Shown here in pieces: positions 25,459 to 64,000 of a DNA stretch of 64,000 bases. A model generated the notes under the pieces. That model did not search any database. It was not told where the DNA came from and saw only the letters and a program-made list of their open reading frames with translations. A program made the position numbers and the translations under genes. Position 1 is the first letter of the stretch. Every line of letters begins with the position of its first letter. Origin of the DNA: a virus (lineage: Duplodnaviria > Caudoviricetes). Where the stretch lies: the IMG/VR virus record IMGVR_UViG_3300028326_000328, positions 1 to 64,000 of that record. One strand, given 5' to 3'.

Positions 25459-25692
25459 CTATTCATCGGTATACACCTTCACGAAATCCCATTCTGGCTT
25501 TGAGGCAATGTACTCCGTGTAATACTCCACTTGCTTTTCGTAGCTGGACAACTGCTCTTCGCTGTCCGTGGAAACGCGGGCATAAGCGGCGACGCGGCGC
25601 TTTCTAGTGCTGCCAATCGGCATCGCGGTAAAACGGTTCAAGGTCGCAGGAACCATCGTAACCCTTGGTTTAAAAGCTCTGGCTTCACTCAT
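25459..25692 (-). pseudogene. 5' fragment of a large serine recombinase, truncated after YTDE
   Basis: RVAAYARVSTDSEEQ catalytic motif, then immediate stop at the boundary with low-GC DNA. Confidence 0.85.
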
Positions 25693-26985
25693 CGGCGTAC
25701 CTCATTCTGGCCTGCGTGGAGGCTCGTGTTTTCATTTCGGACGTCCAGCTTTCGCTGCGGGACCTGTCCGTCCAAATCCGCTCGACCGTGCTACCATCTT
25801 TGAAAACATAAATCAGATGGTTAAAGGCCGGAACCCGGAGCTCCTGAACGCGCTCCTTAAAAACAGCCTCATCGAACTCGGTCAGGCGAGAACGGAGGCT
25901 GTCGTGCTTATCAGGATTTCTTCGGGGATTTGCTTGGTGTGGCAGTGCTTCTTTCCAAACACCAGATACGTCCCGCAATTCCAAGCTGTTTCCGTGCGGC
26001 TCACCTTGCGGCGGTATCGCTTCCCGCATTTATCGCAGCGGATCATCCCGGTAAACGCGGTGTACTGCGGTGCCTTTCGCTCAATGCCGTTGTGGATGCG
26101 GTTGCGCTCCATCTGCTCCTGTACCCGGAGGAACATCTCCGGCGGGATGATGGCCGGATGCGTACCTTCGGAAAAGTATTTGGGTAACTCCCCGTGGTTG
26201 ATTTTCTCAAGCTTCGTCAGATGATCCACAACGTACTTTTTCTGGAGCAAGGCATTCCCGGCGTACTTCTCATTCTTCAACATATCCAGCACCCGCTTCG
26301 GCGACCAAACGCCGCCCCGATAGGACGGAATGTTTCGCTCACGCATGATTTCTGATATTTCTGTCACGCCAACGCCACCCAAGTAAGACTCAAACACCCA
26401 GCGGACAACAAGCGCCTCTTCAGGCTCAATCCATACTCGCCCCTTGCGAATGCGGTATCCATAAAGGAATCGCCAGTTTGCCGGTTCGCCAGCTTCAAAC
26501 TGCTTTCGGATGCGCCACTTGCAGTTTTCAGAAACATTCCGGCTTTCCTCCTGCGCGTATGAAGCGAGGATGGAAAGCATCAACTCTCCACCCTCGCTCA
26601 TGGAATGAATATTCTGTTCCTCAAAGTAGACATCAATGCCCAGCGCCTTGAGTTCCCGCACCGTTTCGAGCAATGTGACCGTGTTCCGGGCGAAGCGGGA
26701 GATGCTCTTGGTAATCACCATGTCGATCTTCCCGGCCCGGCAATCGGCAACCATCCGCTGAAAATCAGCCCTGTTTTCCTTCGTGCCGGTAATCGCTTCA
26801 TCTACATACACCCCGGCATATTCCCATTTGGGATTCTGCTGAATGTATCCGCTGTAATGGCTCACCTGTGTGGACAGCGAATGCAGCATGGCCTCCTTAC
26901 CGGACGAAACGCGGGCATAGGCACAAACCCGCATGCGCACCCAAGCGGGCGGTTTGCTTTGCATAACCCTTTGGATTTTTCTCAT
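25685..26985 (-). pseudogene. Large serine recombinase with a frameshift near 25885
   Basis: CAYARVS, TKSISRFARN, recombinase and zinc-ribbon domains; C-terminus continues in the 25685..26029 frame. Confidence 0.85.
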
Positions 26986-47866: not shown

Positions 47867-49420
47867 TCATATAAGAAGCAGACCTCGTTCGTCATAAACG
47901 GAGCCGCCATTTTGATTCTTCATCGCCCGATCCAGCGCCATGACCAACGCCACAGCGCCGTCCACTTTCTCGGTCGATTTCTCTTTGTCGATTTTGAGGT
48001 TTCCTGCCGGATCGGTGCGGACGAAGGCGTTGTCCATGTTCCAACGGAGAACCGGGTGCCCGCCATGGTTGAGCTTCCTCTCAAGGACGATACGCATAAG
48101 CTCCTTCGTCGGCGGGCTCATGTCTTTATATCCCTGGCCGAAGGGTACCATCGTAAAACCGTCGTCCTCCAGCGCCTGCACCATCATCGTGGCGTTCCAG
48201 CGGTCGTAGGCGATTTCTCGGATGTTGTACCGCTCGCCCAGCTGGACGATGAACCGCTCAATGTGGCCATAATGCACCACATTCCCTTCGGTGGTCTGGA
48301 TGAAATCCTGACGCTCCCAGACATCGTACATCACATGATCGCGCCGGACGCGAAGGCCCAGCGTTTCGTCCGGCAGCCAGAAGAAGGGCAGCACGATGTA
48401 CGGTTCGTCCTCGTTCTCGGGCGGGAACACCAACACCAGCGTGGTCAGGTCGGAAGTAGAAGAGAGGTCAAGCCCCGCGTAGCAGGCCCGGCCCTCCAAA
48501 GCTGAAGCGTCAACCACACCACCGCATTCGTCCCATCGATCCATGGGCATCCAGCGGATGGACTGCTTCACCCATTGATTCAGGCGAAGCTGCCGGAACA
48601 TATTCTCATCGGCAGGCGTTTCTATGGCCTTGCGATAAGCATCCCGCACCTTGTCGATGGAGATGGTGTGGCCCAAGGAGGGATTGCACTTGTACCAGTT
48701 CTTTTCATTCTGCCAGTCCTCGTTCTCTCCGAGGCCAAAGATGGTCGGGTAGAAGCGGGGATCGGCTTTCCGACCTTCGAGGATATCCAGCGCCTTTTGG
48801 TGAACCTCCCAGCAAATGCTGTTCCGGTCGGTTCCCGCTGTGGTGAGCAGGAACCAGAGCGGCTGTTTTCGGGCGTCGCCGCTGCCTTGGGTCATCACGT
48901 CGTAAAGCGCGCGCGTTGGTTGGGTGTGAAGCTCATCGAAAATGCAGGCGCTGACGTTCAGGCCGTGTTTGGTGGCCACCTCACTCGACAACACCTGATA
49001 GATGCTCCCCGTGGGCTGGTAGATCATCCGCTTGGTGGAGGGGATGATCTTGATCCGCTTCATGAGCGCGGGGGACTGCTTAACCATATCAACGGCGACA
49101 TCGAAAACGATGCCTGCTTGTTGCCTGTCAGCAGCACAGCTATACACCTCGGCCTTCCACTCACTGTCGTTCACCAGCATATTGAGCGCAATGGCCGCGC
49201 CAAGTTCGGACTTACCTTGTTTCTTGGGGATTTCAATGTAAGCCGTGGTGTACTGGCGCATCGTCGGGTCATCCTCCCGAACCGTGCCGAACACATCCGA
49301 GATGATCTTCTCCTGCCAAGGGAGAAGCTGAAAGTTCTTCCCATGGAATTCGCCCTTTGTATGCTTCAAACACTGGACAAAATCGATCACGCGGCGGGCC
49401 TTTGCAGGATCAAACGCCAT
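47867..49420 (-). CDS. terL: Terminase large subunit
   Basis: IPKKQGKS Walker A, FDELH, GLDLSSTSD, KIDKEKSTEKVDG. Confidence 0.94.
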   Translation of the reverse strand: MAFDPAKARRVIDFVQCLKHTKGEFHGKNFQLLPWQEKIISDVFGTVREDDPTMRQYTTAYIEIPKKQGKSELGAAIALNMLVNDSEWKAEVYSCAADRQQAGIVFDVAVDMVKQSPALMKRIKIIPSTKRMIYQPTGSIYQVLSSEVATKHGLNVSACIFDELHTQPTRALYDVMTQGSGDARKQPLWFLLTTAGTDRNSICWEVHQKALDILEGRKADPRFYPTIFGLGENEDWQNEKNWYKCNPSLGHTISIDKVRDAYRKAIETPADENMFRQLRLNQWVKQSIRWMPMDRWDECGGVVDASALEGRACYAGLDLSSTSDLTTLVLVFPPENEDEPYIVLPFFWLPDETLGLRVRRDHVMYDVWERQDFIQTTEGNVVHYGHIERFIVQLGERYNIREIAYDRWNATMMVQALEDDGFTMVPFGQGYKDMSPPTKELMRIVLERKLNHGGHPVLRWNMDNAFVRTDPAGNLKIDKEKSTEKVDGAVALVMALDRAMKNQNGGSVYDERGLLLI

Positions 49421-49969: not shown

Positions 49970-52096
49970 TCAGGCCATGGCAGCCATCATCATCGATACT
50001 TCCCTATCGGGCAGTGCTTTCTGATAAACTGTCAGGTGGCTTACGGTCACGGCGCTGAACCGGAATTTTGTCAGATGGTCGGTATCCTGACAGCCAATGA
50101 GCAAATTCCCCAGATACGGCTTCTCAAGTGAGGTGTTCTTCCGTTCCGCGACAAAAATACCATCTTTGAGGATGCGATAGCTGTGGCGGTTTTTGATAAT
50201 CGCCAGCACGGAGTACATCTCAGAGTTTCCCGGTACGACGCCGCCAAAGTTGCGCCCAACGATGACATTGACCTCGTCCCCGACGCAGTTGTAGTCGCGC
50301 CGGATCAGCAACCCCTCGTAATTCGGGAAAATCTCTGAAAAGCACGAACAGATGACCTTTTCCTCGGAAGCGATTGCGTTTGCATAGCGGAGGATCAGTG
50401 TCCAGTCACGGTCAATGTTGTCGAAGATGCGGATGCCGGTATCCACATAAGCGCCTATGCCATCGCCGATGAACGGTTCCGGCAGGTTGTACAGAACACG
50501 GCCATGATTGCCGTTCGCCGTGGTGCGCAGGTTGCGGATCATGTAATCCACGTATTGTGCTCGCCGTGGGATGTACTCTCGCAGCTGATCCAGATCGCGC
50601 ACCATCATCTCGATGTCGGGCCACGCTTTTACGTCCTCGCCATACAATCGTTGGGGGATGCGCTCCGTATACTCCTCGAAAGCCGCCAGAATGGTGGCCG
50701 TGTTGAGTGCGCTTGTGCGCAGTTCCTCGTAGCGGGCGGCCAATTCATCGGGGAAGCATCTGACCAGCTTTTCCCACAAGCGACTATTTGGGCAGTCGTA
50801 TTCATCAGGGCATTTTCGGTCGTAGCTGATTGCGCTCTTCCCATCCCAGATGACACCCCATAAGCTGTCGAGATCATAGAGGCTGGGAAACCATACCTGA
50901 CGGTCAAAGGTGACCATTAGCATATTCTTGGCGAGGTTGTCGGTGGCAGCCGAAAGATAGGCAAAACAATAGTAGTTCAGGCAGGCGTTCAGGTCAAGGA
51001 ATTGTCCGAGCCGCTCCCGAAAATCGGTATCGTTTGCATCGCGTACAAATTCCACCATGCGATTGAACGCGACCAGCGCCGAACCATCGTCCCGGCCATA
51101 CTCCACCGACCATTCCTCGGACGTAGCGCTTTGCTGAAATGCGCATGAGTCGGTTTGAGTTTCCGCACACATAATCAGGGCCGTTTCTTTTTCTTCATCG
51201 CCTAAGCCGAACAACCAGCCAGCCTTGGGAATCGTCCAGCTGTACAGGCCCACGCAAACGCCATTTATGTGAAGCAGCACAGGGAACCCATCGATCAGTC
51301 CTCGATTGGGCGTACCTTGAAAAAGACCGTACTGCTTCTGCATCCCGGCTGCCAGCCGAGCGGAAACCATGTTGCAGGCATGTGTCCGGTCTACCCAATC
51401 CGCCTTGAGAACATAGCGATTCTGCGCCCCCCAGCCAGAGCGCAGGATTACGTTCTTCTTTTCAACAAGTCCATCATCCTCGTGCAGGTAAACGGTGAAG
51501 TTCTTCTTGGGATAGTTGAGTGAGGACGTTCCTTGCGGCTTCATCCGAAGGGCGCAATCAAAGTTCAGCGCGGCGCTTCGATAGGAGAGCCGCGCAATAC
51601 GCTCATCGGCTTTTCCATTCCAGTCCGTCAGGTAATCGCCTTCAATAAAGACCTTGGGTATATCCGAATCCAGCCGCGCGACCAAGCGGGTAAGCTGGTC
51701 TGTCCATGCCTGTCCGACACTTGCGGGAGCGGGGCCTTTGGCAAGCGCAGTATTTACGGTTGCCGCAGCAGATGAAGTTTTCATCAGCCGCCCATCCCGC
51801 TCGGCGCACACCTCAAAGCTCACATTTCCGGGCGCAGCAAGCACCTCGGACGGAATTAGGGCACTCAACTTGCCATCTTCGGGAGCTATACCAGCAAGGA
51901 GCGGCCAAGTCGCCTGATCTGGCAAACGCACCAGTACACTGTACACGGCCCCTTCAAAGGCTTGTGTCCATCCGCCCACATCGACCACCAATTGAGTAGC
52001 TTCTACCTCGCCACAGCGGCCAAGAACCTTCGTCGATCCTTTGATGGAAAGCGTGCCCCCGGAGGAAACCGTGAGTTCAAACCTTCTCAACGACAT
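49970..52096 (-). CDS. CotH kinase-family protein with extra N- and C-terminal domains
   Basis: QGTSSLNYPKKNF, LKADWVD, DNLAKN, YDLD motifs. Confidence 0.75.
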   Translation of the reverse strand: MSLRRFELTVSSGGTLSIKGSTKVLGRCGEVEATQLVVDVGGWTQAFEGAVYSVLVRLPDQATWPLLAGIAPEDGKLSALIPSEVLAAPGNVSFEVCAERDGRLMKTSSAAATVNTALAKGPAPASVGQAWTDQLTRLVARLDSDIPKVFIEGDYLTDWNGKADERIARLSYRSAALNFDCALRMKPQGTSSLNYPKKNFTVYLHEDDGLVEKKNVILRSGWGAQNRYVLKADWVDRTHACNMVSARLAAGMQKQYGLFQGTPNRGLIDGFPVLLHINGVCVGLYSWTIPKAGWLFGLGDEEKETALIMCAETQTDSCAFQQSATSEEWSVEYGRDDGSALVAFNRMVEFVRDANDTDFRERLGQFLDLNACLNYYCFAYLSAATDNLAKNMLMVTFDRQVWFPSLYDLDSLWGVIWDGKSAISYDRKCPDEYDCPNSRLWEKLVRCFPDELAARYEELRTSALNTATILAAFEEYTERIPQRLYGEDVKAWPDIEMMVRDLDQLREYIPRRAQYVDYMIRNLRTTANGNHGRVLYNLPEPFIGDGIGAYVDTGIRIFDNIDRDWTLILRYANAIASEEKVICSCFSEIFPNYEGLLIRRDYNCVGDEVNVIVGRNFGGVVPGNSEMYSVLAIIKNRHSYRILKDGIFVAERKNTSLEKPYLGNLLIGCQDTDHLTKFRFSAVTVSHLTVYQKALPDREVSMMMAAMA

Positions 52097-53342
52097 CACC
52101 TCCACGGAAAACTTGGTCGTAGGCGAGCACATCGCGGCCACGTAGAACCTCCACGCCGACAGCCCCACCGACCTGATTGACATACCGCTGCACAATGACG
52201 CTGGCGTACTTGGGATCAAGCTCCATCGTCCGGCAGATGCGGTCGGTCTGCTCACAGGCGATGAGCGTACTGCCAGAGCCGCCAAAAAGATCAAGCACCA
52301 CGCCGTTGGGCGCGGAGCTATTCTTGATGGGATAGGCCAGCAGCGGAATCGGCTTCATCGTGGGATGCTCGGCGCTGCGCTTGGGTTTGTCGAAGTTCCA
52401 GATGGTGGATTGCTTGCGGTCGGCGAACCACCGGTGCTTCCCGTTGGGTAGCCAGCCAAACAGGATCGGCTCATGCTGCCACTGGTAGGGCGAGCGCCCC
52501 AGCACCAAAGAGTTCTTGGCCCAGATGCATACGCCGCTGATGTGGAAGCCCGCCTCTTTGAAGGCGCGCCGGAAGTTCAAGCCCTCCGTGTCGGCATGGA
52601 AGATGTAGGCCGAACCGCCCTCGGCCATATGCGCGGCCATGTTGCGGAACGCAGCCAGCAGGAAATCAAAGAACTTCCCGTCCGACATGCTGTCGTTCTG
52701 GATGGACTTGCCGTCCGCGCTTTCGTAGGCGACATTATAGGGAGGGTCGGTCACCACAAGGTTGGCTTTCAGGCCATCCATGAGCAAGACCACATCGGCC
52801 TCGCTGGTAGCGTCGCCGCAGACCATCCGGTGCCGTCCCAGCGTCCAAATGTCGCCGGACTCCACGAAGGGCTTGATCCCCTCCGGGTCGATGTCGCACT
52901 CGTCGTCCTTGACGTCCTTGTCGTGAACCTTGGAGAACAGGTCATCAATCTCAGCGGCATCAAAGCCGGTCGCGCCGAGGTCGTAGCCATTCTGCTGGAG
53001 GTCTGAGAGCAGGTCGGCCAACGCCACAGGCTCCCATTCACCGACCGCTTTGTTGAGGGCGATGTTGAGGGCCTTTTCGTCCTGCGGGTTTTCGATATGC
53101 ACCACAACGCAATCGATCTCCGTAGCGCCCTCGGCGGTAAGCACCTTGTACCGCTGATGGCCGCCCACGATGTTGCCGGTCACCTCATTCCAGATCACGG
53201 GATCGACATAGCCGAATTCCTTGAGGCTGCGCCTGATCTTCTCGAAGGCCGGATCGCCGGGCTTGAGGTCTTTGCGCGGGTTATACTTCGCGGGCTTGAG
53301 CCGCTCCACGGCGATCCGCTGCAAGTTCATGGTCGTGTTCAC
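52077..53342 (-). CDS. ParB-like N-terminal domain DNA methyltransferase (N6/N4)
   Basis: LKPAKYNPR, VGGHQR, TDPPY, HPTMKP, DLFGGSGST. Confidence 0.9.
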   Translation of the reverse strand: MNTTMNLQRIAVERLKPAKYNPRKDLKPGDPAFEKIRRSLKEFGYVDPVIWNEVTGNIVGGHQRYKVLTAEGATEIDCVVVHIENPQDEKALNIALNKAVGEWEPVALADLLSDLQQNGYDLGATGFDAAEIDDLFSKVHDKDVKDDECDIDPEGIKPFVESGDIWTLGRHRMVCGDATSEADVVLLMDGLKANLVVTDPPYNVAYESADGKSIQNDSMSDGKFFDFLLAAFRNMAAHMAEGGSAYIFHADTEGLNFRRAFKEAGFHISGVCIWAKNSLVLGRSPYQWQHEPILFGWLPNGKHRWFADRKQSTIWNFDKPKRSAEHPTMKPIPLLAYPIKNSSAPNGVVLDLFGGSGSTLIACEQTDRICRTMELDPKYASVIVQRYVNQVGGAVGVEVLRGRDVLAYDQVFRGGDVVEKV

Positions 53343-53505: not shown

Positions 53506-53690
53506 TTTCGCAGAGCAAAGCGCGAAAGCCGACCACGGCGGTGGACTTTCGCACGGCGAAGCGCGAAAGCCGACCGCGCCGCTGGGACTTCTGCGAAGCA
53601 AAGCGCAAAACCCACCACGGCGGTGGGACTTCTGCGAAGCAAAGCGCAAAAGCCGACCGCGCCGGTCGGGCTTTCGCAGAGCAAAGCGGA
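53506..53690. repeat. Tandem array of about 4.5 imperfect 41-42 bp self-complementary repeats
   Basis: Units TTTCGCAGAGCAAAGCGCGAAAGCCGACCACGGCGGTGGAC and variants. Confidence 0.85.
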
Positions 53691-53816: not shown

Positions 53817-53846
53817 TTGCGTTTTTGCGCCGCCGGAGTGATGAAT
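53817..53846 (+). promoter_or_regulatory. Putative promoter of accessory operon A
   Basis: TTGCGT-N18-ATGAAT with GAGTGATGAATG, like the promoters at 59117 and 59636. Confidence 0.55.
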
Positions 53847-53914
53847 GGGTCGCGGCAAAAAACGCCGCCGCCGCGGGCGGGAAAAACCGCCGGGCGCGAA
53901 AGGGGAACCCCGCC

Positions 53915-54262
53915 GTGACCACCGCCGAAAAAACCGCCGCCGAAACCTTCTGCGCCGCCGCCGCCGCGCAAACCGCCGAAACCCGCGCCGCCGCCGACCG
54001 GGCCTTCCGGGCCAGCGCCCGCGCCGCCGAGGTGCCCTTCCGCGAAACCCGCGCCGCCGCCGCCCGCGCCAGCGAGGACGCCCGTCGCGCCGCCGAAAAA
54101 GCCGACGCCCTTTTGGACGGCTTTGACCCGGAGCCCTACAGCGACGGGCCGGGCGGGCTTTTCGACCAGACCTTTCAGGCCCTCATGGCGGCACACATGG
54201 CCCTAGACAGCGCCGCCCGCCGCGCCGCCTTCGCCGCCCGGTGTGCCCAAGAGAAGGCGTAG
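53915..54262 (+). CDS. Ala-rich helical hypothetical protein; first gene of accessory operon A
   Basis: GTG start after GAAAGGGG; positional counterpart of 70..441. Confidence 0.6.
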   Translation: MTTAEKTAAETFCAAAAAQTAETRAAADRAFRASARAAEVPFRETRAAAARASEDARRAAEKADALLDGFDPEPYSDGPGGLFDQTFQALMAAHMALDSAARRAAFAARCAQEKA

Positions 54263-54327
54263 GCCCGCCCGATGAGGGCCGGTGGCTCCGGCCCGAAACG
54301 CGCACACCGCGCGTCGCGGGAAGCCGC
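54263..54327 (+). ncRNA. Type I hammerhead ribozyme HHR-A1 (CCGATGA core variant)
   Basis: CCCGC-CCGATGA-GGGCCGG-tggct-CCGGCCC-GAAA-CGCGC-acacc-GCGCG-TC(54315)-GCGGG-AAGCCG. Confidence 0.8.
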
Positions 54328-54353
54328 AAAAACACGAAAGGAGAGGTCTCCTC

Positions 54354-55220
54354 ATGAAAGACCAGACATTCGGCATTGAGATTGAAATGAACCACATCTC
54401 TCGCGCCAAGGCGGCGGAGGTCATCGCCGCGCATTTCGGCACACGCGTGGAATTTGTCGGCGGCACCTACGACACCCGGTGTGTGCCCGACGGGCAAGGC
54501 CGCAAATGGAAGGTGGTGTCCGACGCCAGCATCGATGGGCCTGCCAACGAGCGCACGGAATTTGTCAGCCCCATCTGCCGGTGGGAGGACATCGAAACGG
54601 TACAGGAATTGGTGCGCAACCTCCGCAAGGCGGGCGCGCGACCCGACCCCAGCTGCGGCATCCACGTCCACATCGGGCGCGGGCGGCACACGCCCAAAAC
54701 CCTTCGGAATTTGGTCAACTTGGTCAACGCCAAGGAGGACTTGCTTACGCTGGCTCTCCAAATCTCGCCCGAGCGCCGCGAGCGGTGGTGCAAAAGAATC
54801 GACCCCGACTTCCTCGAACGCCTGAACCGCCGCAAACCGCAAACCGACGCCGCCTTCGCCCAGCTTTGGTACAACACCTCCGGCTGGCAATCACACGCCA
54901 ACCAGCACTACGACCAAAGTCGCTACCGGCTCCTAAATCTACACAGCGTTTTCCAAAAGGGCACGGTGGAATTCCGCGCCTTCAACGCGACGCTCCACGC
55001 GGGCGAGGTCAAGACCTACATCCAGCTTTGCATGGCGATTTCGCACATGGCTTTGGAATCAAGTTCGGCCTCCCCGCGCCGCCCGGAAACGGACAACCCG
55101 AAGTACACCTTCCGGTGCTGGCTCCTCCGGCTGGGGTTCATCGGCCCGGAGTTTGAAACCGCCCGCCAGCACCTGCTCAAATACCTGCCCGGCAACGCCG
55201 CTTGGAGACAGGCGGGCTGA
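54354..55220 (+). CDS. Putative amidoligase (paralog of 470..1336, same length)
   Basis: FGIEIE, CGIHVHIG, TVEFRAFN. Confidence 0.88.
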   Translation: MKDQTFGIEIEMNHISRAKAAEVIAAHFGTRVEFVGGTYDTRCVPDGQGRKWKVVSDASIDGPANERTEFVSPICRWEDIETVQELVRNLRKAGARPDPSCGIHVHIGRGRHTPKTLRNLVNLVNAKEDLLTLALQISPERRERWCKRIDPDFLERLNRRKPQTDAAFAQLWYNTSGWQSHANQHYDQSRYRLLNLHSVFQKGTVEFRAFNATLHAGEVKTYIQLCMAISHMALESSSASPRRPETDNPKYTFRCWLLRLGFIGPEFETARQHLLKYLPGNAAWRQAG

Positions 55221-55260
55221 CGCCCGACCGGCACAGCTTCCAAATCAAGTGTGCTGTGCC

Positions 55261-55321
55261 GCCCGCCCGACGAGGCTGATTGGCCATCAGCCGAAACGTG
55301 CCACACGTCGCGGGAAGCCAC
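55261..55321 (+). ncRNA. Type I hammerhead ribozyme HHR-A2 (CCGACGA core variant)
   Basis: CCCGC-CCGACGA-GGCTGAT-tggcc-ATCAGCC-GAAA-CGTG-cca-CACG-TC(55309)-GCGGG-AAGCCA. Confidence 0.8.
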
Positions 55322-55368
55322 CGGCAGTGCCGGTACCAAAGCCCCCAAATCAAGCGAGGAGGTACACC

Positions 55369-55602
55369 ATGAACGAACGTATCCACCAAGAAATCCGAGG
55401 ACTCCTGAATCACATGCGCCAAGAGCCATTCAATACGCGCGAACACGCCCTCAACATCGCCGCAATCGGTGGCATGCTCACAGCCATCAGGTTCATCACC
55501 GGCGAAAGCTGGGCGATGGTCAACGCAAATCGCGCGACCCGGATGCACATCCAGAACGAAAGGACGGGCGAGTGCATCGAGGGGGATGTCGAAATGTTCT
55601 GA
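55369..55602 (+). CDS. Small hypothetical protein (77 aa)
   Basis: GAGGAGGT RBS. Confidence 0.72.
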   Translation: MNERIHQEIRGLLNHMRQEPFNTREHALNIAAIGGMLTAIRFITGESWAMVNANRATRMHIQNERTGECIEGDVEMF

Positions 55603-55607
55603 AATAA

Positions 55608-55680
55608 GCCCGCCTGACGAGCAGCCCGGTGGCTCCGGGCCGAAACGCTCCGAAATCAACCGGAGCATCGCGGGAAGCCC
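55608..55680 (+). ncRNA. Type I hammerhead ribozyme HHR-A3 (ATC triplet, bulged stem II)
   Basis: CCCGC-CTGACGA-G(ca)GCCCGG-tggct-CCGGGCC-GAAA-CGCTCCG-aaatcaac-CGGAGC-ATC(55669)-GCGGG. Confidence 0.7.
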
Positions 55681-55710
55681 AGCTTCCAAATCAAACGCAG
55701 GAGGTACACC

Positions 55711-55935
55711 ATGAACGAGCATGTGCAAAATCAGGATTCCATCATCACCGAGGAAATCGTAGAGGAAGCCCTTGACGGAATCCTAAACGGGGAATGGGAC
55801 ACAGAAAACAGCGCCCTCGAAGGCGCTCGAACCCGGACATTCCAACAGGCGGGCGTCATGACCTACAACAAGGGGTTGATCATCACCTTGCCCGACGGCA
55901 CAGAGTACCAACTGACCATCGTCCGCAGCCGGTAA
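55711..55935 (+). CDS. Small acidic hypothetical protein (paralog of 1969..2193)
   Basis: AGGAGGT RBS; conserved C-terminus. Confidence 0.8.
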   Translation: MNEHVQNQDSIITEEIVEEALDGILNGEWDTENSALEGARTRTFQQAGVMTYNKGLIITLPDGTEYQLTIVRSR

Positions 55936-55937
55936 GA

Positions 55938-56002
55938 CGCCCACGGGGACACAGCTTAGCACAGGACGAAACGCTCCTAACCGGGAGTGTCGCGGGAGCC
56001 GC
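55938..56002 (+). ncRNA. Degenerate hammerhead remnant
   Basis: GAAA-CGCTCC-taacc-GGGAGTG-TC-GCGGG retained; CTGANGA core and stem II lost. Confidence 0.45.
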
Positions 56003-56033
56003 AAGCTTCCAAATCAAGAAGGAGGCACACGTC

Positions 56034-56336
56034 ATGACGATGGAGGAAAAATGGAACGCCGCTCATGCCCTTACTGACCTCGCCGCTCGCAAGCTCGCCT
56101 TCGCCATTGTACAAACCGAATGGGAAATCGAGGAGGCCACCAAGCGCCTCTAAGACGCGCGCAAACGCGTCGAGGATTCCGCCACCCGGTCCAGTTCTGC
56201 AATGTACGCAGACAGCATCGAAGGCTGGCTGCGCGATTGGCGAAACGAGTACACGCGCCTTGCGGAAAAGAACCGAACGTTGGAGCTCCTGAATCACCTT
56301 GCCCGCGACGCCAAGCCAGAGGCCGCCCGCTCCTAA
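56034..56336 (+). pseudogene. Hypothetical coiled-coil protein interrupted by in-frame TAA (56151-56153)
   Basis: AAGGAGG RBS; same frame continues DARKRVEDS...AARS* to 56336. Confidence 0.6.
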
Positions 56337-56342
56337 ATCAAA

Positions 56343-56392
56343 CTGCCTGAAGATGGCCTTTGGCACAGGCCGGAACGCTCTTCAATCAAGGA
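56343..56392 (+). ncRNA. Degenerate hammerhead remnant
   Basis: CTGAAGA-t-GGCCT-ttggcac-AGGCC-GGAA; no clear NUH or stem I. Confidence 0.35.
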
Positions 56393-56402
56393 GGGACACA
56401 TC

Positions 56403-56621
56403 ATGAAGATCACCACCGCAGCACAGTGCTTTGATATCCTCGACTGGTTCGACGATCCGCTTTACGACTACCTCGCACACAACCTTGTCGCCAAGCTCGA
56501 CGGCGAGGAACGCATCGCCCGAGCGCTCCCACATCTGATCGAACATACCACCGCGCCTGTTGCGGCTCACGCGGATAAGGCGAACGCTTACCCGGTGGAG
56601 TTTTGGAATCAACCCGCCTGA
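56403..56621 (+). CDS. Small hypothetical protein (72 aa); stop codon lies in ribozyme core
   Basis: AGGAGGG RBS; TGA of CTGACGA is the stop. Confidence 0.7.
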   Translation: MKITTAAQCFDILDWFDDPLYDYLAHNLVAKLDGEERIARALPHLIEHTTAPVAAHADKANAYPVEFWNQPA

Positions 56622-56678
56622 CGAGTGCTGCATGGCTCGCAGCCGAAACCGCCCGCTTGGGCGGTCGCGGGAAGCTAC
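56612..56678 (+). ncRNA. Type I hammerhead ribozyme HHR-A4
   Basis: CCCGC-CTGACGA-G(t)GCTGC-atggctc-GCAGCC-GAAA-CCGCCC-gctt-GGGCGG-TC(56666)-GCGGG-AAGCTA. Confidence 0.9.
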
Positions 56679-56710
56679 AGCTTCCAAATCAAACGCAGGA
56701 GGTTTACACC

Positions 56711-56857
56711 ATGAATAGGATTGTCATCAAGGTCTGGCGGGGATTGGTTTCCGAAGTCTACGCAAGCGACGCCAACACAGAAGTCATCGTTATAGATGAG
56801 GATTGCGACGAGGTTCTACTCGCAGACACAGACTTGCCCGCACATCAGGTTTACTGA
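56711..56857 (+). CDS. Small acidic hypothetical protein (48 aa)
   Basis: AGGAGGT RBS before ATG 56711. Confidence 0.65.
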   Translation: MNRIVIKVWRGLVSEVYASDANTEVIVIDEDCDEVLLADTDLPAHQVY

Positions 56858-56887
56858 GCTTACAAATCAACCAGAGGAGGTATTCGA

Positions 56888-57094
56888 TTGAAAAGCATTT
56901 GCATCCGCGTGGAAGATGAAATACATCGCCAGTTGAAATGTGTTCTGCTGTATCGAGGTTCAACTCTTCAGGACTTCGTGATCGGACTAATCGAACGCGA
57001 AATCGAACGCGAGGCGAGCGAAATCGCGTACAACGACACAACCGGCGAGGCAACAAGGCTCTTTCAGCGCGTCGGCATTCCTACCAAGCTGTGA
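56888..57094 (+). CDS. Ribbon-helix-helix-like DNA-binding protein
   Basis: KSICIRVEDEIHRQLK...TLQDFVIGLIE pattern; AGGAGGT RBS with TTG start. Confidence 0.6.
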   Translation: MKSICIRVEDEIHRQLKCVLLYRGSTLQDFVIGLIEREIEREASEIAYNDTTGEATRLFQRVGIPTKL

Positions 57095-57112
57095 AATTAA
57101 GGAGGAAACACA

Positions 57113-57553
57113 ATGAAGTACATCGCTTACGGTTCCAACATGGTCAAGGAGCAAATGGACTACCGCTGCCCGGACGCCAGACTCATCGGCACCGGATACA
57201 TCAAGCAGGCCCGCTTGGAATTCTATCTCCACGCCACCGTCAAACGCTCCCAAATCAAGGACTCGCGTGTGCCGGTGGCGGTGTGGGAGATCTCGGAGGT
57301 AGACGAACGGCGACTCGACCGGTACGAGGGGTTCCCGGATTACTACATCAAGGAGGAATGGCCGGTCACCCTGTCGGACGGCTCCGAAATCAAGGGGATG
57401 ATTTACCTGATGAAGCGCATCCGCAAAGCGCCGCCGAACATGGATTACTTCCAAGGCATCTTCAACGCCTACGAGGACTTGGGCCTTGAATCGGAAATCA
57501 ACAGCGTGTTGATGCCCGCGCTTAGCCGCAGCCTCCGGCGCAAGAAGCGCTGA
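57113..57553 (+). CDS. Gamma-glutamylcyclotransferase family protein (paralog of 2448..2903)
   Basis: YIAYGSNM, LDRYEGFP. Confidence 0.88.
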   Translation: MKYIAYGSNMVKEQMDYRCPDARLIGTGYIKQARLEFYLHATVKRSQIKDSRVPVAVWEISEVDERRLDRYEGFPDYYIKEEWPVTLSDGSEIKGMIYLMKRIRKAPPNMDYFQGIFNAYEDLGLESEINSVLMPALSRSLRRKKR

Positions 57554-57573
57554 CGCACAGCCCCAAACGAGAT

Positions 57574-57604
57574 AAGCCGCTCTCCATCGAGGGCGGCTTT
57601 TTTG
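57574..57604 (+). terminator. Intrinsic terminator of accessory operon A
   Basis: AAGCCGCTCTC-catc-GAGGGCGGCTTTTTT. Confidence 0.8.
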
Positions 57605-57766
57605 CTCTGGAATTGGGCCGACGTTGGCGCGTGTCGGGCCTTGGAATCGGCGGTCGGACAAACCCTCGACCAAGGCCCGCAAGGCCGCACGTGGGGCGAA
57701 CGTGGCGGCGACGCGGGCAAAGAAAAAGCAGCCGCACGGGCTGCTTTGGAATCGAGCGGCGGAGGG

Positions 57767-58285
57767 CTATGGAATCAAGTCCAAGGCTACCTCGGTACCG
57801 CTTTCCGTCGCGCGAAACCGGACGAGCACTTTTCCATCCGCCACATCGTAGACCGCTTGAAACGGGTGGCTCCATAGCGACGTCAGCCCTGCGCACTCCG
57901 TGTAGGCTTTCACCCGATACACATTGAAATCCACTTTGTCGCGCACGGCCTGCCATTCCTCAAAGATGCGGCGCAGACGGGGTACTTGTTCTTTTTGAAG
58001 GTGCTCCATAACGACCGCGCCCGGCAGCGCTTCGAAATCAGATTTCGAGCGCTCCGCTTTGAAACACGCCCAAAATTCAAGCGGCATCGGGCTTTGCATC
58101 ATCTCAAGCACCGCCTCCGTCGTGCCGCAATCATCGCAGACATACAAACCGACCTGACGGCTGAGCGCGTTCCGATGGATTTTCCGGTTCATGGAATCCT
58201 GCCCACAGCGCGGGCAAAGCATGTGCTCCCCGGCCATCTGCCGGACTCTCAAATCAAGTAAGACCTGTTCTTGTTTCTCAGTCAT
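57767..58285 (-). CDS. Zinc-finger hypothetical protein (paralog of 2996..3514)
   Basis: CPRCG...NALSRQ..LYVCDDCG. Confidence 0.75.
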   Translation of the reverse strand: MTEKQEQVLLDLRVRQMAGEHMLCPRCGQDSMNRKIHRNALSRQVGLYVCDDCGTTEAVLEMMQSPMPLEFWACFKAERSKSDFEALPGAVVMEHLQKEQVPRLRRIFEEWQAVRDKVDFNVYRVKAYTECAGLTSLWSHPFQAVYDVADGKVLVRFRATESGTEVALDLIP

Positions 58286-59088
58286 CTTGCTTCGCCCCCC
58301 CTTGTTTCGCGGGCAATCCTGCGGATTTCGGCGTACTTGTCCTTGTGCTTCATGGCTTCATCATCGTTGCGGAAAGCCGTGTGGCCTTTGAGGCCTGTGA
58401 GCAGAGCGTTCCGGGACGCTTTGAAATCAGCGCCGCCAAAGCCCAACCGTAAAAGCCAAGAGCGCAACACATACTTTTCGTTCTCCGGGCGGCGCACCTC
58501 CGCGTTGACCCGCTTCGCCTCTCGCGCCGCGCGCACCATGGCGCTGACCAAGTCGGCATACGCCTTGTTCTTTTCCGGGGCTTCGTCCAGCGGGAAGTTC
58601 AGCGTGACTGTGCCGTCTTGGAAATCGACGCCGGTCAGGTCGCCCAGCGCTTTGAAATCGCCCATCAGGGTTTCAAAATGAGCAAGGGTTTCCGGCAGGT
58701 ATTCGCCCAAGCGAGTCGTGACCGCCTCGGAAATCGAGAAACTCTCGCGCCGCGTGACCCGGTTCAACAGGTGCTGGTAGCCGTAGAGCGTGTAAATCAA
58801 ATTCCGAAGCTGATTCCCGTCCATGTCCTCCGTGGGCACCGAAATCGCCAGCGTCTCAATCTCTGTTTCGATCTCCGGTTCGATGAAGCCGTGTTCCATC
58901 AGGAAGGGCTTCAAGCCTTCCAGTGCCTCGGCATCCTCGCCGGTGATGGAACCGTCGCGCTCCACCGTCACCGGGCCGATGCTGTAGGAAAAGGATGGCG
59001 GCCCCTGATACCGCGATTCCGCTTGCAGGTGCTCTGCAATCTTCTTCACCAAGGTGCGCCGGTCTTCCGCGTGGGTTTGGATGGTCAT
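58282..59088 (-). CDS. Conserved phage protein ('virulence-related'; paralog of 3511..4377)
   Basis: ENEKYVLRSWLLRLGFGG...LKGHTAF. Confidence 0.75.
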   Translation of the reverse strand: MTIQTHAEDRRTLVKKIAEHLQAESRYQGPPSFSYSIGPVTVERDGSITGEDAEALEGLKPFLMEHGFIEPEIETEIETLAISVPTEDMDGNQLRNLIYTLYGYQHLLNRVTRRESFSISEAVTTRLGEYLPETLAHFETLMGDFKALGDLTGVDFQDGTVTLNFPLDEAPEKNKAYADLVSAMVRAAREAKRVNAEVRRPENEKYVLRSWLLRLGFGGADFKASRNALLTGLKGHTAFRNDDEAMKHKDKYAEIRRIARETRGGEAR

Positions 59089-59116
59089 GCTTCATACCCC
59101 CTTCAATCTGGTAGGA

Positions 59117-59147
59117 CATTAATCACTCTAAAGGGGATGGAAGTCAA
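59117..59147 (-). promoter_or_regulatory. Putative promoter
   Basis: TTGACT-N18-ATTAAT with GAGTGATTAATG. Confidence 0.6.
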
Positions 59148-59605
59148 GATAATTCTGAACGGTGGAAGCGGTTTTGAATATAGCAGCCGTGACCGCAGAA
59201 GCGGCGGTTCCGATTCCCGTAGGCGGAGAACATCTTTCCGCAGCACGCGCACGTCGTCGGGTACAGCGCGCTTTCACGTTTTTGAATCGCGTCGGAGTGC
59301 GCCAACCACCAAGCGCGGCGACAGGCATCGCTGCAGAATTTTCGCCTGCGTCCAGTGTGCGGCTGCGTCAGGGGCTTGCCGCAGTTGGAGCATTGGGCGT
59401 CCCGTTGTTCCCGCTTCTCGGCAGCCTGCGCATCGGCATAACCGCCCATGTTATGGATACGGCAGTAATTTCGAACAGTATCCCGGCTAAGGCCGAGCTT
59501 TGTCGCTATTGCCTTATAGCCGATCCCTTTGCTGCGGCCATCCTGAATCAACCTTTGTTGTAGAGCAGTCAGCGGGTTTCGGCTCGAAGCGGCTTGTTCT
59601 GTCAT
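59144..59605 (-). CDS. HTH plus zinc-finger protein
   Basis: GYKAIATKLGLSRDTVRNYCR; CSNCGK...FCSDAC; CACCGK...FCGHGC; promoter TTGACT at 59661-59666. Confidence 0.75.
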   Translation of the reverse strand: MTEQAASSRNPLTALQQRLIQDGRSKGIGYKAIATKLGLSRDTVRNYCRIHNMGGYADAQAAEKREQRDAQCSNCGKPLTQPHTGRRRKFCSDACRRAWWLAHSDAIQKRESALYPTTCACCGKMFSAYGNRNRRFCGHGCYIQNRFHRSELS

Positions 59606-59662
59606 GGGAATACCTCCATAGTAATTTTTACGTGATATCAATCACTCTGAAGGGCTTCAAAG

Positions 59663-60715
59663 TCAAGTGCTTTGTTCCCATGGCAACTCCGCCTTTCCGA
59701 AATGCCCGTAGGCCGATACACGATTGTAATCCACATCCAGCAGATGCAGCCGGTCGATGATCCCGCACGGTGTCAAATCGTACAGCGTGCGAATCTGCCG
59801 CTCAATCTCGGGAACCGGCATTCGGTTGGTGCCGAAGCAATAGACCGACACGGACACAGGCTCGGCGATCCCAATCGCGTAGGCAATTTGTACCTCGCAG
59901 CGCCGCGCCTGTCCCGCGCGCACAATATCGCAGGCGATCTTCCGTGCCATGTAAGCGCCCGAACGGTCAACCTTGGTGGGGTCTTTGCCGGAGAACGCTC
60001 CGCCGCCGTGGCGGCACATGCCGCCGTAGGAATCGGCGATGATCTTCCTGCCCGTCAGACCAGTGTCCGCAAAGGACGAACCGATCACAAATCGCCCGGT
60101 GGGATTCACCAGTGCTTTGAAATCGGTGTTCAATCCGTAGTGCTCAGCCGCTTTGGCCATCACCGCGTCCACCGCAGATCGAATCTCGCGGAGGTCGGCA
60201 TCGGCTTGGTGCTGTGTACTGATCAGGAAGGTGGCGATTCGCTTCTTACCGTAGTCGTAGGTCACTTGGCTCTTCGCGTCGTGTAGCAGGAGCGGGTGTT
60301 CAAGATGCCGCAGCAGCTTAAGTGCATGGGTGGCGACGGCAAACGGAATGGGCAGATGCTCCGGCGTTTCGTCCGTCGCGTACCCGAACATCATCCCCTG
60401 ATCGCCAGCGCCCTTCCGATCCACGCCCAACGCGATGTCCCGGCTCTGGCAGGTGAACAGCGGCGTGACATGGTATCGCTCCACATCTTGAAGGCCGATC
60501 CGATCAAGCACCCCACGCGCCACCGACAAGTAGTCAGGCATGTGCAGGGAAGTGGTTTCGCCTGCAAGGATGATCTCGTAATCCTTGATCATACACTCAA
60601 TCGCCAAGCGGCTGTCCCGGTCGTGGCGAAGGAAGTCGGTCAAGAGCGCGTCTGAAATCTGGTCGCAAATCTTATCAGGATGCCCGCAGGACACCTGCTC
60701 GCTCGTAAATAGCAT
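59663..60715 (-). CDS. metK: S-adenosylmethionine synthetase
   Basis: SEQVSCGHPDKICDQISD, GAGDQG, GGGAFSGKDPTKVDRS. Confidence 0.93.
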   Translation of the reverse strand: MLFTSEQVSCGHPDKICDQISDALLTDFLRHDRDSRLAIECMIKDYEIILAGETTSLHMPDYLSVARGVLDRIGLQDVERYHVTPLFTCQSRDIALGVDRKGAGDQGMMFGYATDETPEHLPIPFAVATHALKLLRHLEHPLLLHDAKSQVTYDYGKKRIATFLISTQHQADADLREIRSAVDAVMAKAAEHYGLNTDFKALVNPTGRFVIGSSFADTGLTGRKIIADSYGGMCRHGGGAFSGKDPTKVDRSGAYMARKIACDIVRAGQARRCEVQIAYAIGIAEPVSVSVYCFGTNRMPVPEIERQIRTLYDLTPCGIIDRLHLLDVDYNRVSAYGHFGKAELPWEQST

Positions 60716-60918
60716 GTTGATCCCTCCGTGCTATGGATAGAGCCGCCCGCCAGCGGAGTGAAAGGACAAGCCTCCGCTGGGCAAGCGGCCAGCCACAAAA
60801 GAAAAAGAGCAGGTTGTTTTCCTGCTCCATCCATTTCCGGCGATTCTAAGAATACCACATTTTCAGAACCAAGTCAGTGTACCGACAGTGTACCTTTGGT
60901 GAACCAAAGCGCAACCCT

Positions 60919-61410
60919 TTAGTCCAGGATATAGGCGACCACTTCCTTGTCACGAACCTCGTACAGAGAATCCAGTTCCTCGATGGCCCTTTTGCGGTAC
61001 TTCCCAATCATCCTGCGGCTCACATAGTATTTGGTCGAGAGAGCGTCCCAAGTCATCTGCCCGATCACCATATCGCGCATGACCTCTGGCAGCTTCTTGG
61101 ACAGGGAACCCAGCGCCGCCTCCAGAAACTGCAACTCCTCGTTCAGCACACGCAGTTTGTTTTCCAGATGCCCAAACCACTCCCGATTGATCCGCTCCAT
61201 CCTCTCCTGATAGTTCAGGGCGATCTGGGCGGTCTTGTCGGATGTGCCGCTGGTCTGGACGCGCTCCCCGTCCATGCGTGGCGTGTACATGCTCTCGATC
61301 ACTTCCTCCGCCGTGACGCCCCGGAAGTGTGCGATCTGATGCGCCAAGCAGTCGCGTTCCCGTTTGAGCTTCGGGTACTCCTTCAGCAGCTTTTCAATCC
61401 TCGCGCTCAT
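60919..61410 (-). CDS. Phage late transcriptional regulator-like protein
   Basis: Position after SNF2; C-terminal HTH-like segment. Confidence 0.65.
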   Translation of the reverse strand: MSARIEKLLKEYPKLKRERDCLAHQIAHFRGVTAEEVIESMYTPRMDGERVQTSGTSDKTAQIALNYQERMERINREWFGHLENKLRVLNEELQFLEAALGSLSKKLPEVMRDMVIGQMTWDALSTKYYVSRRMIGKYRKRAIEELDSLYEVRDKEVVAYILD

Positions 61411-62753
61411 GCCTCGCCTCCAATTCTGGCCTTCACCGCCTCGATCAAGGCGGCCTGTCCCATGTCTTTTCGCTCCAGCGCCCGCACCACATCCTCGTCG
61501 TGAGTGCCAAGGGCAACGATGTGCTGGAGAATCACCGCGTCCCGCTGGCCTTGCCGCCAGAGCCGGGCGTTCAGCTGCTGGTAGAGTTCCAAGCTCCACG
61601 TGAGGCCGAACCACACCACGGTTGAACCGCCGTCCTGCAGGTTCAAGCCGTGCCCGGCAGAGGCCGGGTGAATCAGCGCTACGGGAATCCGCCCGGCGTT
61701 CCAGTCCGCGATGTCCCGCGCCGTGTCAATGATCCGAACGTCAAACCGCCCCTGAATCCGGGCGAGGTCGTGCTTGTACCAGTAGGCGACCAGCAGGGGC
61801 TTGCCGTTGGCCGCCTCGATCAAATCTTCCAGCGCGTCCAACTTTCGGTCGTGGATGGGAAGCGTCCTGCCCTCCGCGTCGTACACCGCGCCGTTGGCCA
61901 TTTGGAGGAGCTTGCCGGACAGCGCTGCCGCGTTGACCGCGTCGATCTGGCCACTTGGTAAGCGGAGCACCATCTCTCGCCGAAGCGTATCGTACAGCTT
62001 GCGCTCGGCGCTGTTCAACCGTACCTCGACGCGATTGCTGATGAGTTCCGGCATTTTCAGGTGGTCGGTCGCCTTCATGGAGATGCACAGGTCGGAGATC
62101 AGTTCGTAAATGCGCTGTTCCGCGCCCTCCCGAAGCCTGTAGCTGTACACGATCTCCCGGTTTCGCTTATCGGGGAGAAAGAACCGATCCCGGTATCCGG
62201 TGATGAAGCGCCCCAGCCGCTTGCCCATGTCCAGCAGATAGACCTGCGGCCACAGGTCGATGAGCGTGTTGGGGGCCGGTGTGCCCGTCAGCCCGATGAC
62301 CCGTTTCACCATGGGCCGCACGCGCTTAAGCGCACGGAACCGCTGCGCTTTGGAGGACTTGAAGGAGGACAGTTCATCGATCACCAGCGTGTCGAAATCC
62401 CAGCGGTGGTTGTCGACCAGCCATGCCACGTTCTCCCGGTTGATGATGTACAAAAACGCCCTCCGGCGAAGGGCCTACCGCCTCTGTTTCTCCGTGCCCA
62501 TGACCAGCGAGTAGGATAGCCCCTTCAGGTGATCCCATTTGGCCAGTTCCTTGGGCCAAGTGTCCTCGGCCACGCGCTTGGGGGCGATCACCAGCGCCCG
62601 TCCGCAGTCGAAGCTGTCAAGCACCAAATCCCAAAGCGCCGTCAGGGTGATGACGCTTTTGCCCAAACCCATGTCGAGGATCAGGCCGCAGTACGGGTGT
62701 GTGAGCACAAAGTCCGTGGCGTAATCCTGATAATCATGCGGATTGTATTGCAT
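61407..62753 (-). pseudogene. SNF2 helicase with in-frame TAG (62475-62477)
   Basis: ORFs 62475..62753 and 61407..62453 are in the same frame: EKQRR*ALRRRAFLYIINREN; paralog of 5197..6552. Confidence 0.85.
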
Positions 62754-63015
62754 CCAAGACCACTCCTATCTGCTCCGGCCCATCTACGACGAACACCCGA
62801 AACCCTAGACCCTCCAGCTGTTCCTTGCGCAATGCCTGTAAGGGCCGGAGCGTTTTGCCGGGGGCTTTCAATTCCACAAAGGCGAGCCTTCCACTCGGTA
62901 ACAGGGCAATGCGGTCGGGCACCCCATCAAGACCGGGGGAGATGAATTTGGGAGCCAACCCGCCACGTTTTTTTACCTCGGTGACGAACCGCCGCTCGAT
63001 GCTGCTTTCTCTCAA
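62734..63015 (-). CDS. VRR-NUC domain nuclease
   Basis: GVPDRIALLPSG..AFVELKAPG. Confidence 0.88.
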   Translation of the reverse strand: MRESSIERRFVTEVKKRGGLAPKFISPGLDGVPDRIALLPSGRLAFVELKAPGKTLRPLQALRKEQLEGLGFRVFVVDGPEQIGVVLDAIQSA

Positions 63016-63239
63016 GGTTTTCTCCTTCCGGCTGTGTTTCCAGTTGTTGTTGCCAACTGCCTGTAAACCCCTTACGCGTGTATATGTGTGTTTCTCCACT
63101 ATATATAGTGTTTTCATAGCTCATAAGGGGGCTATCTGGGAAACGAGAGAAACGGATACCGAAGAACCCAAGCAACACTGCTTTTCCCTCGTTTCCCAGC
63201 CAAGTTTCCAGCTACCGTTATGGCAATGAAGGAAACGAA

Positions 63240-64000
63240 TCAAGCGTTTCCGGGTGCTTCCTTGGCAACGCGCACAAAGGTCTTTTGAACGCCGTATCCA
63301 GAGATGCGCATTTTCCCGGAGGCGTTGCCCTTGTAGCGCTCCCAGCCGCCGATGCGGTTCAGAATCCCTTCGATCTCGTAGGAGTCGGTGCGTTTGAGGT
63401 TCTGGCGCTCCTTGCCGAAGCACTCGCACCAGATTTCCATGATGCACACCCTCTCCCGGCGCACGCTGCCCTTGTTCGCCCCGCCGTCAAACTCGCTGTC
63501 GCCCAAGAAGCTCCGGCGCTGATACAGATCCATGGCGTCCCATCGGTCAGGCAGAAGCCTTTCAAGGTAATCGGCGATGATGCCCTCGCGGTCGTCCGCT
63601 TCCATGGCATCCTGCTGGGCGCAGTATGCCTGTGCGGCAACTTCACCCTTGAGGTATAGCTCCTCACCGGCCCTGTACTTCTCAATGGCCTCCGCCCAGA
63701 TCTGATCCACGGTCGCAGGGGTGATCTCGAATACCGTGTGAGCCGTCCCGCCCTTCACCAGCACCGGCCAGAAGCGGCGGTTGCCGGTGATGTCCCGAAG
63801 GAAGCCGGACTCCGAGTTTGTGGAGCCAACGATGACACAGGCCCTCGGATGGCTCTCCACCGCAATGCCGTAGGACTGCCGGAATTTATCGTCCGTGCGG
63901 GTGATGAACGACTTCACCGTTTCCACGTCCACCTTCTTGATGCCCGCGAGCTCACCCAACTCCAGAATCCAATAGCCCTGAAGCTTCTCGGCGGCGGTCT
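63240..64000 (-). CDS. VapE primase/helicase (3' part; starts beyond window)
   Basis: AAEKLQGYWILELGELAG, GNRRFW; paralog of 6959..9319. Confidence 0.85.
   Translation of the reverse strand, partial: TAAEKLQGYWILELGELAGIKKVDVETVKSFITRTDDKFRQSYGIAVESHPRACVIVGSTNSESGFLRDITGNRRFWPVLVKGGTAHTVFEITPATVDQIWAEAIEKYRAGEELYLKGEVAAQAYCAQQDAMEADDREGIIADYLERLLPDRWDAMDLYQRRSFLGDSEFDGGANKGSVRRERVCIMEIWCECFGKERQNLKRTDSYEIEGILNRIGGWERYKGNASGKMRISGYGVQKTFVRVAKEAPGNA

Follow-up and report, generated by a model that had tools for sequence, protein, structure and literature searches.

A strictly oriented array of an 11-nucleotide word in one gene block of gut phages related to Ca. Heliusvirales

The first 64 kb (the window) of the 72-kb provirus record IMGVR_UViG_3300028326_000328 in IMG/VR carry many copies of a short asymmetric word, GCTYYNRAATC, on one strand of a module that runs from an amidoligase gene into a gamma-glutamyl cyclotransferase (GGCT) gene and two minus-strand genes, encoding a Zn-ribbon protein and an amidoligase paralog. 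The array is real, polar, confined to one block, specific to a phage lineage, under purifying selection, evenly spaced and independent of the orientation of the genes that it crosses. On balance, it is slightly probable that the word is read at the DNA level in one way or another, and the specific reading that we favour, tentatively, is that the copies are oriented DNA sites for a phage-encoded factor, which would form a one-way barrier or checkpoint to rightward transcription.

The window contains 19 copies of the motif in its exact 13-nt form, GCTYYNRAATCAA, and all are on the + strand, while 0.13 matches are expected from shuffles; the 19 copies group in two clusters at 1166-3489 and 55050-57393. 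When up to one mismatch was allowed, the clusters widened to 1166-4688 and 54929-59654, the latter with 21 + strand matches, and a single match, on the - strand at 25665, lay between them. The 11-nt core GCTYYNRAATC has 33 sites on the + strand and 1 on the - strand of the window, with clusters at 817-4221 (array B) and 54929-58659 (array A), and AATCAA alone shows a strand ratio of 31:1 in the ~9 kb of both clusters (expected, 2.2). The first-pass annotation, made from the letters of the window, had described a polar + strand array near 55050-60126; this array is genuine and stronger than first described. Two of the sites listed there, 58649 and 60114, do not hold as 13-mers, having two mismatches, but carry the exact 11-nt core. 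Of its interpretation, the + polarity, the confinement to a block and the reach past the terminator are borne out, whereas the binder and the RNA roles that it proposed are not, as described below. A logo was built from 311 unique sites of the window and its relatives. This logo has seven near-invariant positions (G1, C2, T3, A8, A9, T10 and C11), Y at positions 4 and 5 and R at position 7, and the motif in it is sharply bounded by flanks that are not conserved. An AA tail 3' of the core is present at 0-73% of sites, depending on the phage lineage; the tail is thus a lineage preference, and the true core is the 11-mer.

The motif belongs to a defined group of phages. Using the amidoligase, 94 loci with enough flanking sequence were fetched, and at least six motif copies were found in 70 of the 75 loci whose amidoligase is at least 57% identical to that of the window, but in none of the 19 loci below 57% identity. 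The motif-less distant clade (Lachnospiraceae and others) is also without the Zn-ribbon gene and the paralog. Per related locus, the array spans 4-9 kb and comprises 15-29 copies on one strand. The first-pass annotation had named an even spread in related genomes as the result that would speak against its proposal; no such spread was seen, and the motif is confined to one block. For example, four related genomes of 53-55 kb (three 100% complete by CheckV and the fourth deposited as a complete genome) have 15-25 copies in one block of 3-7 kb, on one strand, and 1-2 elsewhere. A 14-mer scan of IMG/VR returned largely chance single matches together with four further arrays, all of the same family. 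Two IMG/VR loci, L030 and L031, have a variant motif, GGTTTCAAATCAAG, that starts ~2.2 kb upstream of the amidoligase gene; both loci carry additional genes upstream, and neither a Zn-ribbon gene nor a paralog was detected in them. In a search of sequencing runs, no RNA run was listed with this phage, and DNA runs shared at most 0.11 of its words.

The position of the array within the block is also regular. When 21 non-redundant loci were aligned at the GGCT stop codon, 359 sites lay on the + strand and 1 on the - strand. Sites were absent over the 7 kb that precede the amidoligase 3' end, had a density of 3-5 per kb from there to 1.5 kb past the GGCT stop codon, and tailed off to ~6 kb. Array A does not begin with the operon but within the amidoligase gene, ~575 nt from the start of that gene, and neither the first 575 nt of this gene nor the sequence upstream contains a site. 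At the other side, the dense array ends near the start codon of the paralog in most relatives. The span scales with the length of the operon, reaching 7.6 kb (1636-9282) in L084. The copies continue beyond the operon terminator (57574-57605) into the minus-strand genes, as had been noted from the sequence, at 57743, 57766, 58029, 58245, 58418 and 58649, and across relatives the sites remain on the + strand within the minus-strand Zn-ribbon, paralog and MetK genes. In L089, the paralog is on the + strand and still bears four + strand copies, encoded by different peptides, so the polarity belongs to the block and not to the gene.

The motif is maintained by selection, even at a cost in protein sequence. 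In 136 genome pairs at 75-97% identity, divergence was 3.1% at the seven invariant positions, 10.4% in the flanks and ~10% at the degenerate positions; the invariant positions therefore change ~3.4 times slower than the flanks. GGCT reads the motif as nGC TYY NRA ATC, giving [RG]S[QE]I at three separate protein positions across relatives, and this peptide is absent from the GGCT of the motif-less clade. The minus-strand genes read it as GAT TYN RRA GCn, giving a recurrent D[FL]KA in the Zn-ribbon and paralog proteins, and in the small + strand open reading frames (ORFs) the motif occurs in all three reading phases. The copies are also spaced more evenly than by chance: gaps shorter than 60 nt make up 5.4% of the gaps between sites compared with 21.5% under random placement, and the coefficient of variation of the spacing is 0.70 compared with 1.01. 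This mutual avoidance fits a footprint, or one site per stretch. The median spacing is 216 nt, and no helical periodicity of 10-11 nt was found; iterons and plasmid-type centromere repeats, which are close and helically phased direct repeats, were rejected on these grounds.

We infer that the reader acts on DNA and not on RNA, that it is phage-encoded, and that the machine it affects is RNA polymerase. In the mechanism that we propose, GCTYYNRAATC would mark one block (the amidoligase 3' end, the variable cassettes, GGCT, Zn-ribbon and paralog), and a phage-encoded factor would contact its two invariant parts, GCT and AATC, on double-stranded DNA. Since all sites share one orientation, the occupied array would affect a machine moving along the DNA in a direction-dependent manner. 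RNA polymerase would be the most plausible target, with the array as a one-way stop for rightward transcription through the accessory module, and leftward transcription of the Zn-ribbon and paralog genes would be left untouched. Several observations support this reading. The polarity is near-absolute regardless of gene orientation, and the density is equal in the + operon and in the next 1.5 kb. It thus holds across a strong + strand terminator, which is awkward for a signal carried in + strand RNA, and stays constant over a conserved, untranscribed-looking island and over 1.5 kb antisense to two conserved genes. Selection at the nucleotide level, the block-level polarity seen in L089, even spacing, the absence of an RNA-accessibility signature, the absence of host enrichment and the lineage-variable AA tail point in the same direction.

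A precedent for such action may be found in the stoperators of cluster A mycobacteriophages, and the array would resemble the orientation-dependent stoperators of mycobacteriophage L5 in its effect. The L5-type repressor acts as a monomer with two DNA-binding domains; it recognises more than 20 sites, each an asymmetric 13-mer, and blocks elongation only when they are in one of the two orientations (PMC9283540). Both systems have an asymmetric word (13 bp there, 11-13 here) in many copies (more than 20 per genome there, 15-29 here), an orientation bias that is nearly absolute, a preference for short intergenic spaces and a lineage-variable consensus (PMC9283540, PMC6550527). However, stoperators are spread over the whole genome, include an operator copy over the early promoter, flip their orientation with transcription in both arms and are bound by a repressor, whereas the motif here is limited to one 4-9 kb block at ~5-10 times higher density, is absent from the ~1.2 kb between the operon start and 54929, stays on the + strand in minus-strand genes, and comes with no identified repressor homolog. 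With no flip in orientation, no promoter operator and no genome-wide spread, the array may work like stoperators but is not a member of that class. The same differences weigh against our proposal itself: no copy overlaps a promoter and the first site lies ~1.2 kb into the operon, and the sites, limited to one block, keep their orientation where transcription changes direction. In addition, about half of the sites lie within coding sequence, no binder was identified, the modelled Zn-ribbon protein has no recognisable nucleic-acid-binding fold and is missing from the arrays of L063 and L115, and the placement of copies at Shine-Dalgarno (SD) sequences, at the first hammerhead stem and in third-stem and terminator loops suits RNA at least equally well. 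It is conceivable, though we hold it with some doubt, that the array is an as yet undescribed kind of phage cis-signal, in which ~20 protein-binding words on the anti-defence and accessory module of Heliusvirales form a one-way array. Such an array would give direction to RNA polymerase, a replication fork or a recombination helicase as it moves along the DNA, and selection for it would have rewritten proteins of both strands.

The word may instead be an RNA signal, a possibility that we regard as real but rather doubtful. A phage (or host) RNA-binding factor would then recognise GCUYYNRAAUC on the + transcript, oppose the folding of terminators and hammerheads and act beside the SD, serving antitermination that is re-loaded after each ribozyme cut, or processing, stability or translation control, and the copies past the terminator would be carried by read-through RNA that is antisense to the Zn-ribbon and paralog genes. 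The strict co-orientation with the + operon agrees with this, as does the Y, Y, R degeneracy, which is typical of RNA recognition. In the cassettes, copies follow stop codons, directly precede the first hammerhead stem (1342, 1841 and 56600), occupy the third stem and loop (55647, and also in L038) or precede the SD. The first-pass remark that several copies sit just before a ribosome-binding site was correct: those at 55341, 55682, 56005, 56377, 56680 and 56858 (6 of the 21 sites of array A) end 0-4 nt before AGGAGG, and family-wide 47 of 394 unique sites (~12%) lie 0-7 nt before an SD and start codon, well above chance. Some copies also lie in hairpins, as had been pointed out; the one at 55236 is in the 15-nt loop of a 9-bp stem, and at 55647 the 5' half lies in the third stem of a hammerhead-like three-way junction, with AAAUCAA in its loop. 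In many relatives, the terminator hairpin that follows GGCT is built on the motif (GCC GCTYYC AAATC GRRAGC GGC), which forms its 5' arm and loop, so a bound protein would prevent folding. The 5' half of a copy before the SD pairs with GGGAAGC, a sequence that would become exposed on cleavage by a ribozyme. Against an RNA signal stands the unchanged density past a strong terminator and over 1.5 kb antisense to two conserved genes, at the expense of their protein sequences. Moreover, 304 of the 394 unique sites (77%) have no SD and start within 60 nt, and a hairpin partner on either side exceeds the permuted control in only ~3% of sites, too few for display in hairpin loops as a general rule; the mainly RBS- or hairpin-linked role considered in the first-pass annotation is thus not supported. 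When RNA accessibility of the motif was compared with shuffled flanks and with the opposite strand, no signature and no difference were found, and no selection for pairing was detected. A trans RNA partner with wobble complementarity (GAUUUNGGAGC) was found neither on the + strand of the window nor in host 16S and spacer. The hammerhead-like junctions (CUGANGA ... GAAA ... UC) at 55609-55673, 56613-56672, 1361-1420 and 1854-1917 have the expected minimum-energy fold, and a further copy at 55270-55320 has CCGACGAG in place of CUGANGAG and may be inactive; Rfam gave no family in either cluster and no match to a hammerhead model even at E <= 5. The motif as a by-product or element of hammerheads was rejected, since loci with arrays of 21-27 sites lack the CUGANGA...GAAA core and the third stem and loop are used only occasionally. 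Clustered prophage hammerheads described by Perreault et al. (2011, PMC3088659) likewise flank single small genes in a prophage operon, but the motif here lies outside the ribozyme core and reaches far beyond the ribozyme region, and the passages of that paper on prophages and ribozyme clusters describe no such motif. A boxA-like NusB/NusE signal does not fit either: the host boxA, CCTTGAAAAC, read from the rrn leader and spacer, differs at 3 of the 7 invariant positions, and neither the motif nor a loosened pattern was present in the flanks of five rrn loci from two host genomes. E. coli boxA is GCUCUUUAACAA. The boxA of rRNA operons and lambdoid nut sites is polar to transcription and superficially similar (CCUUGAAAAC in hosts compared with GCUUUGAAAUC), but occurs once or twice per operon and not ~20 times. 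Start-associated sequences (SAS) of cluster K mycobacteriophages are 13-bp asymmetric repeats a few bases upstream of some starts and oriented with transcription (PMC3203893), whereas only ~12% of copies here precede a start, the SD is outside the motif and many copies are antisense.

Tracking machines other than RNA polymerase are a less likely target of a polar DNA signal. The array could be a one-way fork barrier, a Chi-like or recombination hotspot for a phage helicase-nuclease that enters from a presumed nearby cos end and aids cassette exchange, or a signal read as packaging ends or as ejection begins. The absolute polarity, the even spacing and a single sharp boundary with gradual decay on the other side would suit such functions; furthermore, the block holds the most variable cassette region, its conserved flanking genes could be homology arms, SNF2 helicase and VRR-NUC nuclease genes are nearby, and the distance between the block and the terminase and ParB-methylase genes is 1.5-5 kb in all relatives. 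However, the array begins within the amidoligase gene and not at any DNA end, scales with operon length even to the extent seen in L084, and does not switch orientation across the inter-terminator island, which would be expected if the island were a bidirectional origin. To our knowledge, packaging or ejection signals that extend over kilobases have no precedent. Chi and KOPS/SRS, the words of RecBCD/AddAB and FtsK/SpoIIIE, are also strictly oriented and take their value from density and direction, but they are non-degenerate words of 5-8 nt found throughout the host chromosome, whereas the motif is limited to the phage block. A host Chi/KOPS-like word was rejected on this basis, because copies outside prophages were at about chance level in four host metagenome-assembled genomes (MAGs); in MAG G003, ~36 of 51 copies fall in four prophage blocks. 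Least of all, and very improbably, the motif has no function of its own and is the residue of repeated duplication of cassette boundaries (ribozyme, leader and SD) or of a mobile mini-element. The intergenic units are indeed visibly related repeats, and four leaders carry identical copies of GCTTCCAAATCAA. On the other hand, conserved coding genes of either strand contain about half of the sites, in several phases, only seven invariant bases are kept amid drifting sequence, the logo has no flanking homology, and polarity is restored on the inverted gene of L089.

Several candidate readers were considered for the DNA site that we favour. The RHH-like protein at 56888-57094, proposed as a binder in the first-pass annotation, was not found by tblastn in other motif-bearing loci, including the cluster of the window at 817-4221; its ORF occurs only in this unit and is therefore not the conserved reader. 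The Zn-ribbon protein (CPRCG...CDxCG) was modelled by AlphaFold2 with a pLDDT of 93. A Foldseek search of the PDB with this model had no match at E <= 0.001, and VIA-align matched it to generic alpha/beta folds only, with Z no higher than 6.5. The protein may have a new fold, as judged from the model. As a reader it was rejected, with no fold match and with arrays in L063 and L115 that lack the gene. A DUF1492/sigma-70-region-4-like regulator (phrog_36) is encoded at 60919-61614 (-) and 4548-5048 (-) of the window, and in 5 of 5 relatives checked (G005-G008 and PV036419.1) its gene is found past the far end of the array, at a distance of 0.4-2 kb. It resembles the late-gene activators of Firmicutes phages; nothing beyond location links it to the motif, and it was set aside as a reader. 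Five neighbouring proteins were compared with the AA tail, and their co-variation with it was weak and uninformative (Spearman about 0 to 0.37). A promoter of the sigma-70 type or with an activator box was also rejected, because the 311-site logo shows no second conserved element in the 20 nt before or the 32 nt after the motif.

The features of array A, array B and their surroundings are listed in Table 1. In the window, 1-7700 and 53845-64000 are syntenic at 66-74% identity, ~53.8 kb apart, which indicates that the two motif clusters represent one module carried by each of two related phage units. The duplicated early/replication module could come from tandem related prophages, or from an assembly that joined two strain variants via a shared structural module. 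On the + strand, the module consists of an Ala-rich ORF, the amidoligase, variable small ORFs with hammerhead-like junctions, the cyclotransferase and a strong terminator, and from the right it is met by - strand genes for the Zn-ribbon protein, the 268-aa amidoligase paralog, an HTH protein at 59144-59641, MetK, SNF2 helicase, VRR-NUC nuclease and a VapE-like protein. The paralog matches the C-terminal two-thirds of the amidoligase, so that two amidoligase-like genes facing each other bracket the module. To the left, the - strand encodes a ParB-methyltransferase, a CotH-like protein, TerL, portal, capsid and tape measure. The island between the convergent terminators is also present at the same spot in ~20 relatives; it may serve as an origin, as an operator region or as some other cis site. 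A tandem repeat of ~83 nt, with two copies that are 81% identical, lies at 53514-53688, where the ParB-methylase gene and the operon diverge. A region of low GC at 16000-26000 (45-49% compared with 56-60% elsewhere), between the replication and tail modules, has large + ORFs of 695, 934, 381 and 245 aa and could be an inserted defence or accessory island.

Table 1. Positions of motif copies, genes and other elements in the window.
Feature	Position	Strand	Remarks
TerL	47867-49420		separated from the + operon by the CotH-like and ParB-methylase genes
CotH kinase-like gene (PF08757)	49970-52294	-	between the terminase and ParB-methyltransferase genes; only in some relatives
Amidoligase gene (PF12224)	54354-55220	+	array starts in its last ~290 nt
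Array A, dense part, exact 11-nt cores	54929, 55050, 55236, 55647, 55682, 56005, 56285, 56329, 56680, 57246, 57381, 57743, 58029, 58418, 58649	+	
Array A, dense part, one-mismatch copies	55341, 56377, 56600, 56858, 57766, 58245	+	
Variable small-ORF cassettes	55221-57112	+	hammerhead-like three-way junctions between them
RHH-like ORF	56888-57094	+	found in this unit only
Gamma-glutamyl cyclotransferase (GGACT/AIG2, GGCT) gene	57113-57553	+	motif copies 57246 and 57381 encoded as RSQI and GSEI
Intrinsic terminator of the + operon, strong	57574-57605	+	11-bp stem, T run
Conserved island between convergent terminators	57606-57724		inverted boxes CCACGTT / AACGTGG and TGTCGGGC / GCCCGCGACA
Terminator of the minus-strand operon	57725-57747	-	its + strand 3' arm is overlapped by motif copy 57743
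Zn-ribbon protein gene, 172 aa, conserved	57767-58285	-	+ strand motif copies antisense, read as D[LF]KA
Amidoligase paralog, 268 aa, phrog_2443	58282-59088	-	BLASTP 7e-14 to the amidoligase
Array A, sparse tail	59654-60124	+	one-mismatch 13-mer at 59654, exact core at 60114
Array B	817-4221	+	17 core sites; homologous module of the other phage unit

The closest annotated relatives of the window are Ca. Heliusvirales gut phages of Christensenellales and Oscillospiraceae, and related prophages are present in MAGs of these two groups. Ca. Heliusvirales are among the most widespread phage lineages of the human and animal gut, and we know of no work on gene regulation in them. The array offers a clean experimental signal, with a defined 11-nt word, a defined block and ~70 natural replicates of 15-29 copies each, and provides a case of a non-coding signal that shapes protein sequences on both strands. 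It sits on a module of variable small genes, a kind often tied to counter-defence. Naming the reader would show how Heliusvirales phages control or exchange this accessory module, and would tell whether orientation-dependent control by many sites, known so far from mycobacteriophages, is more general.

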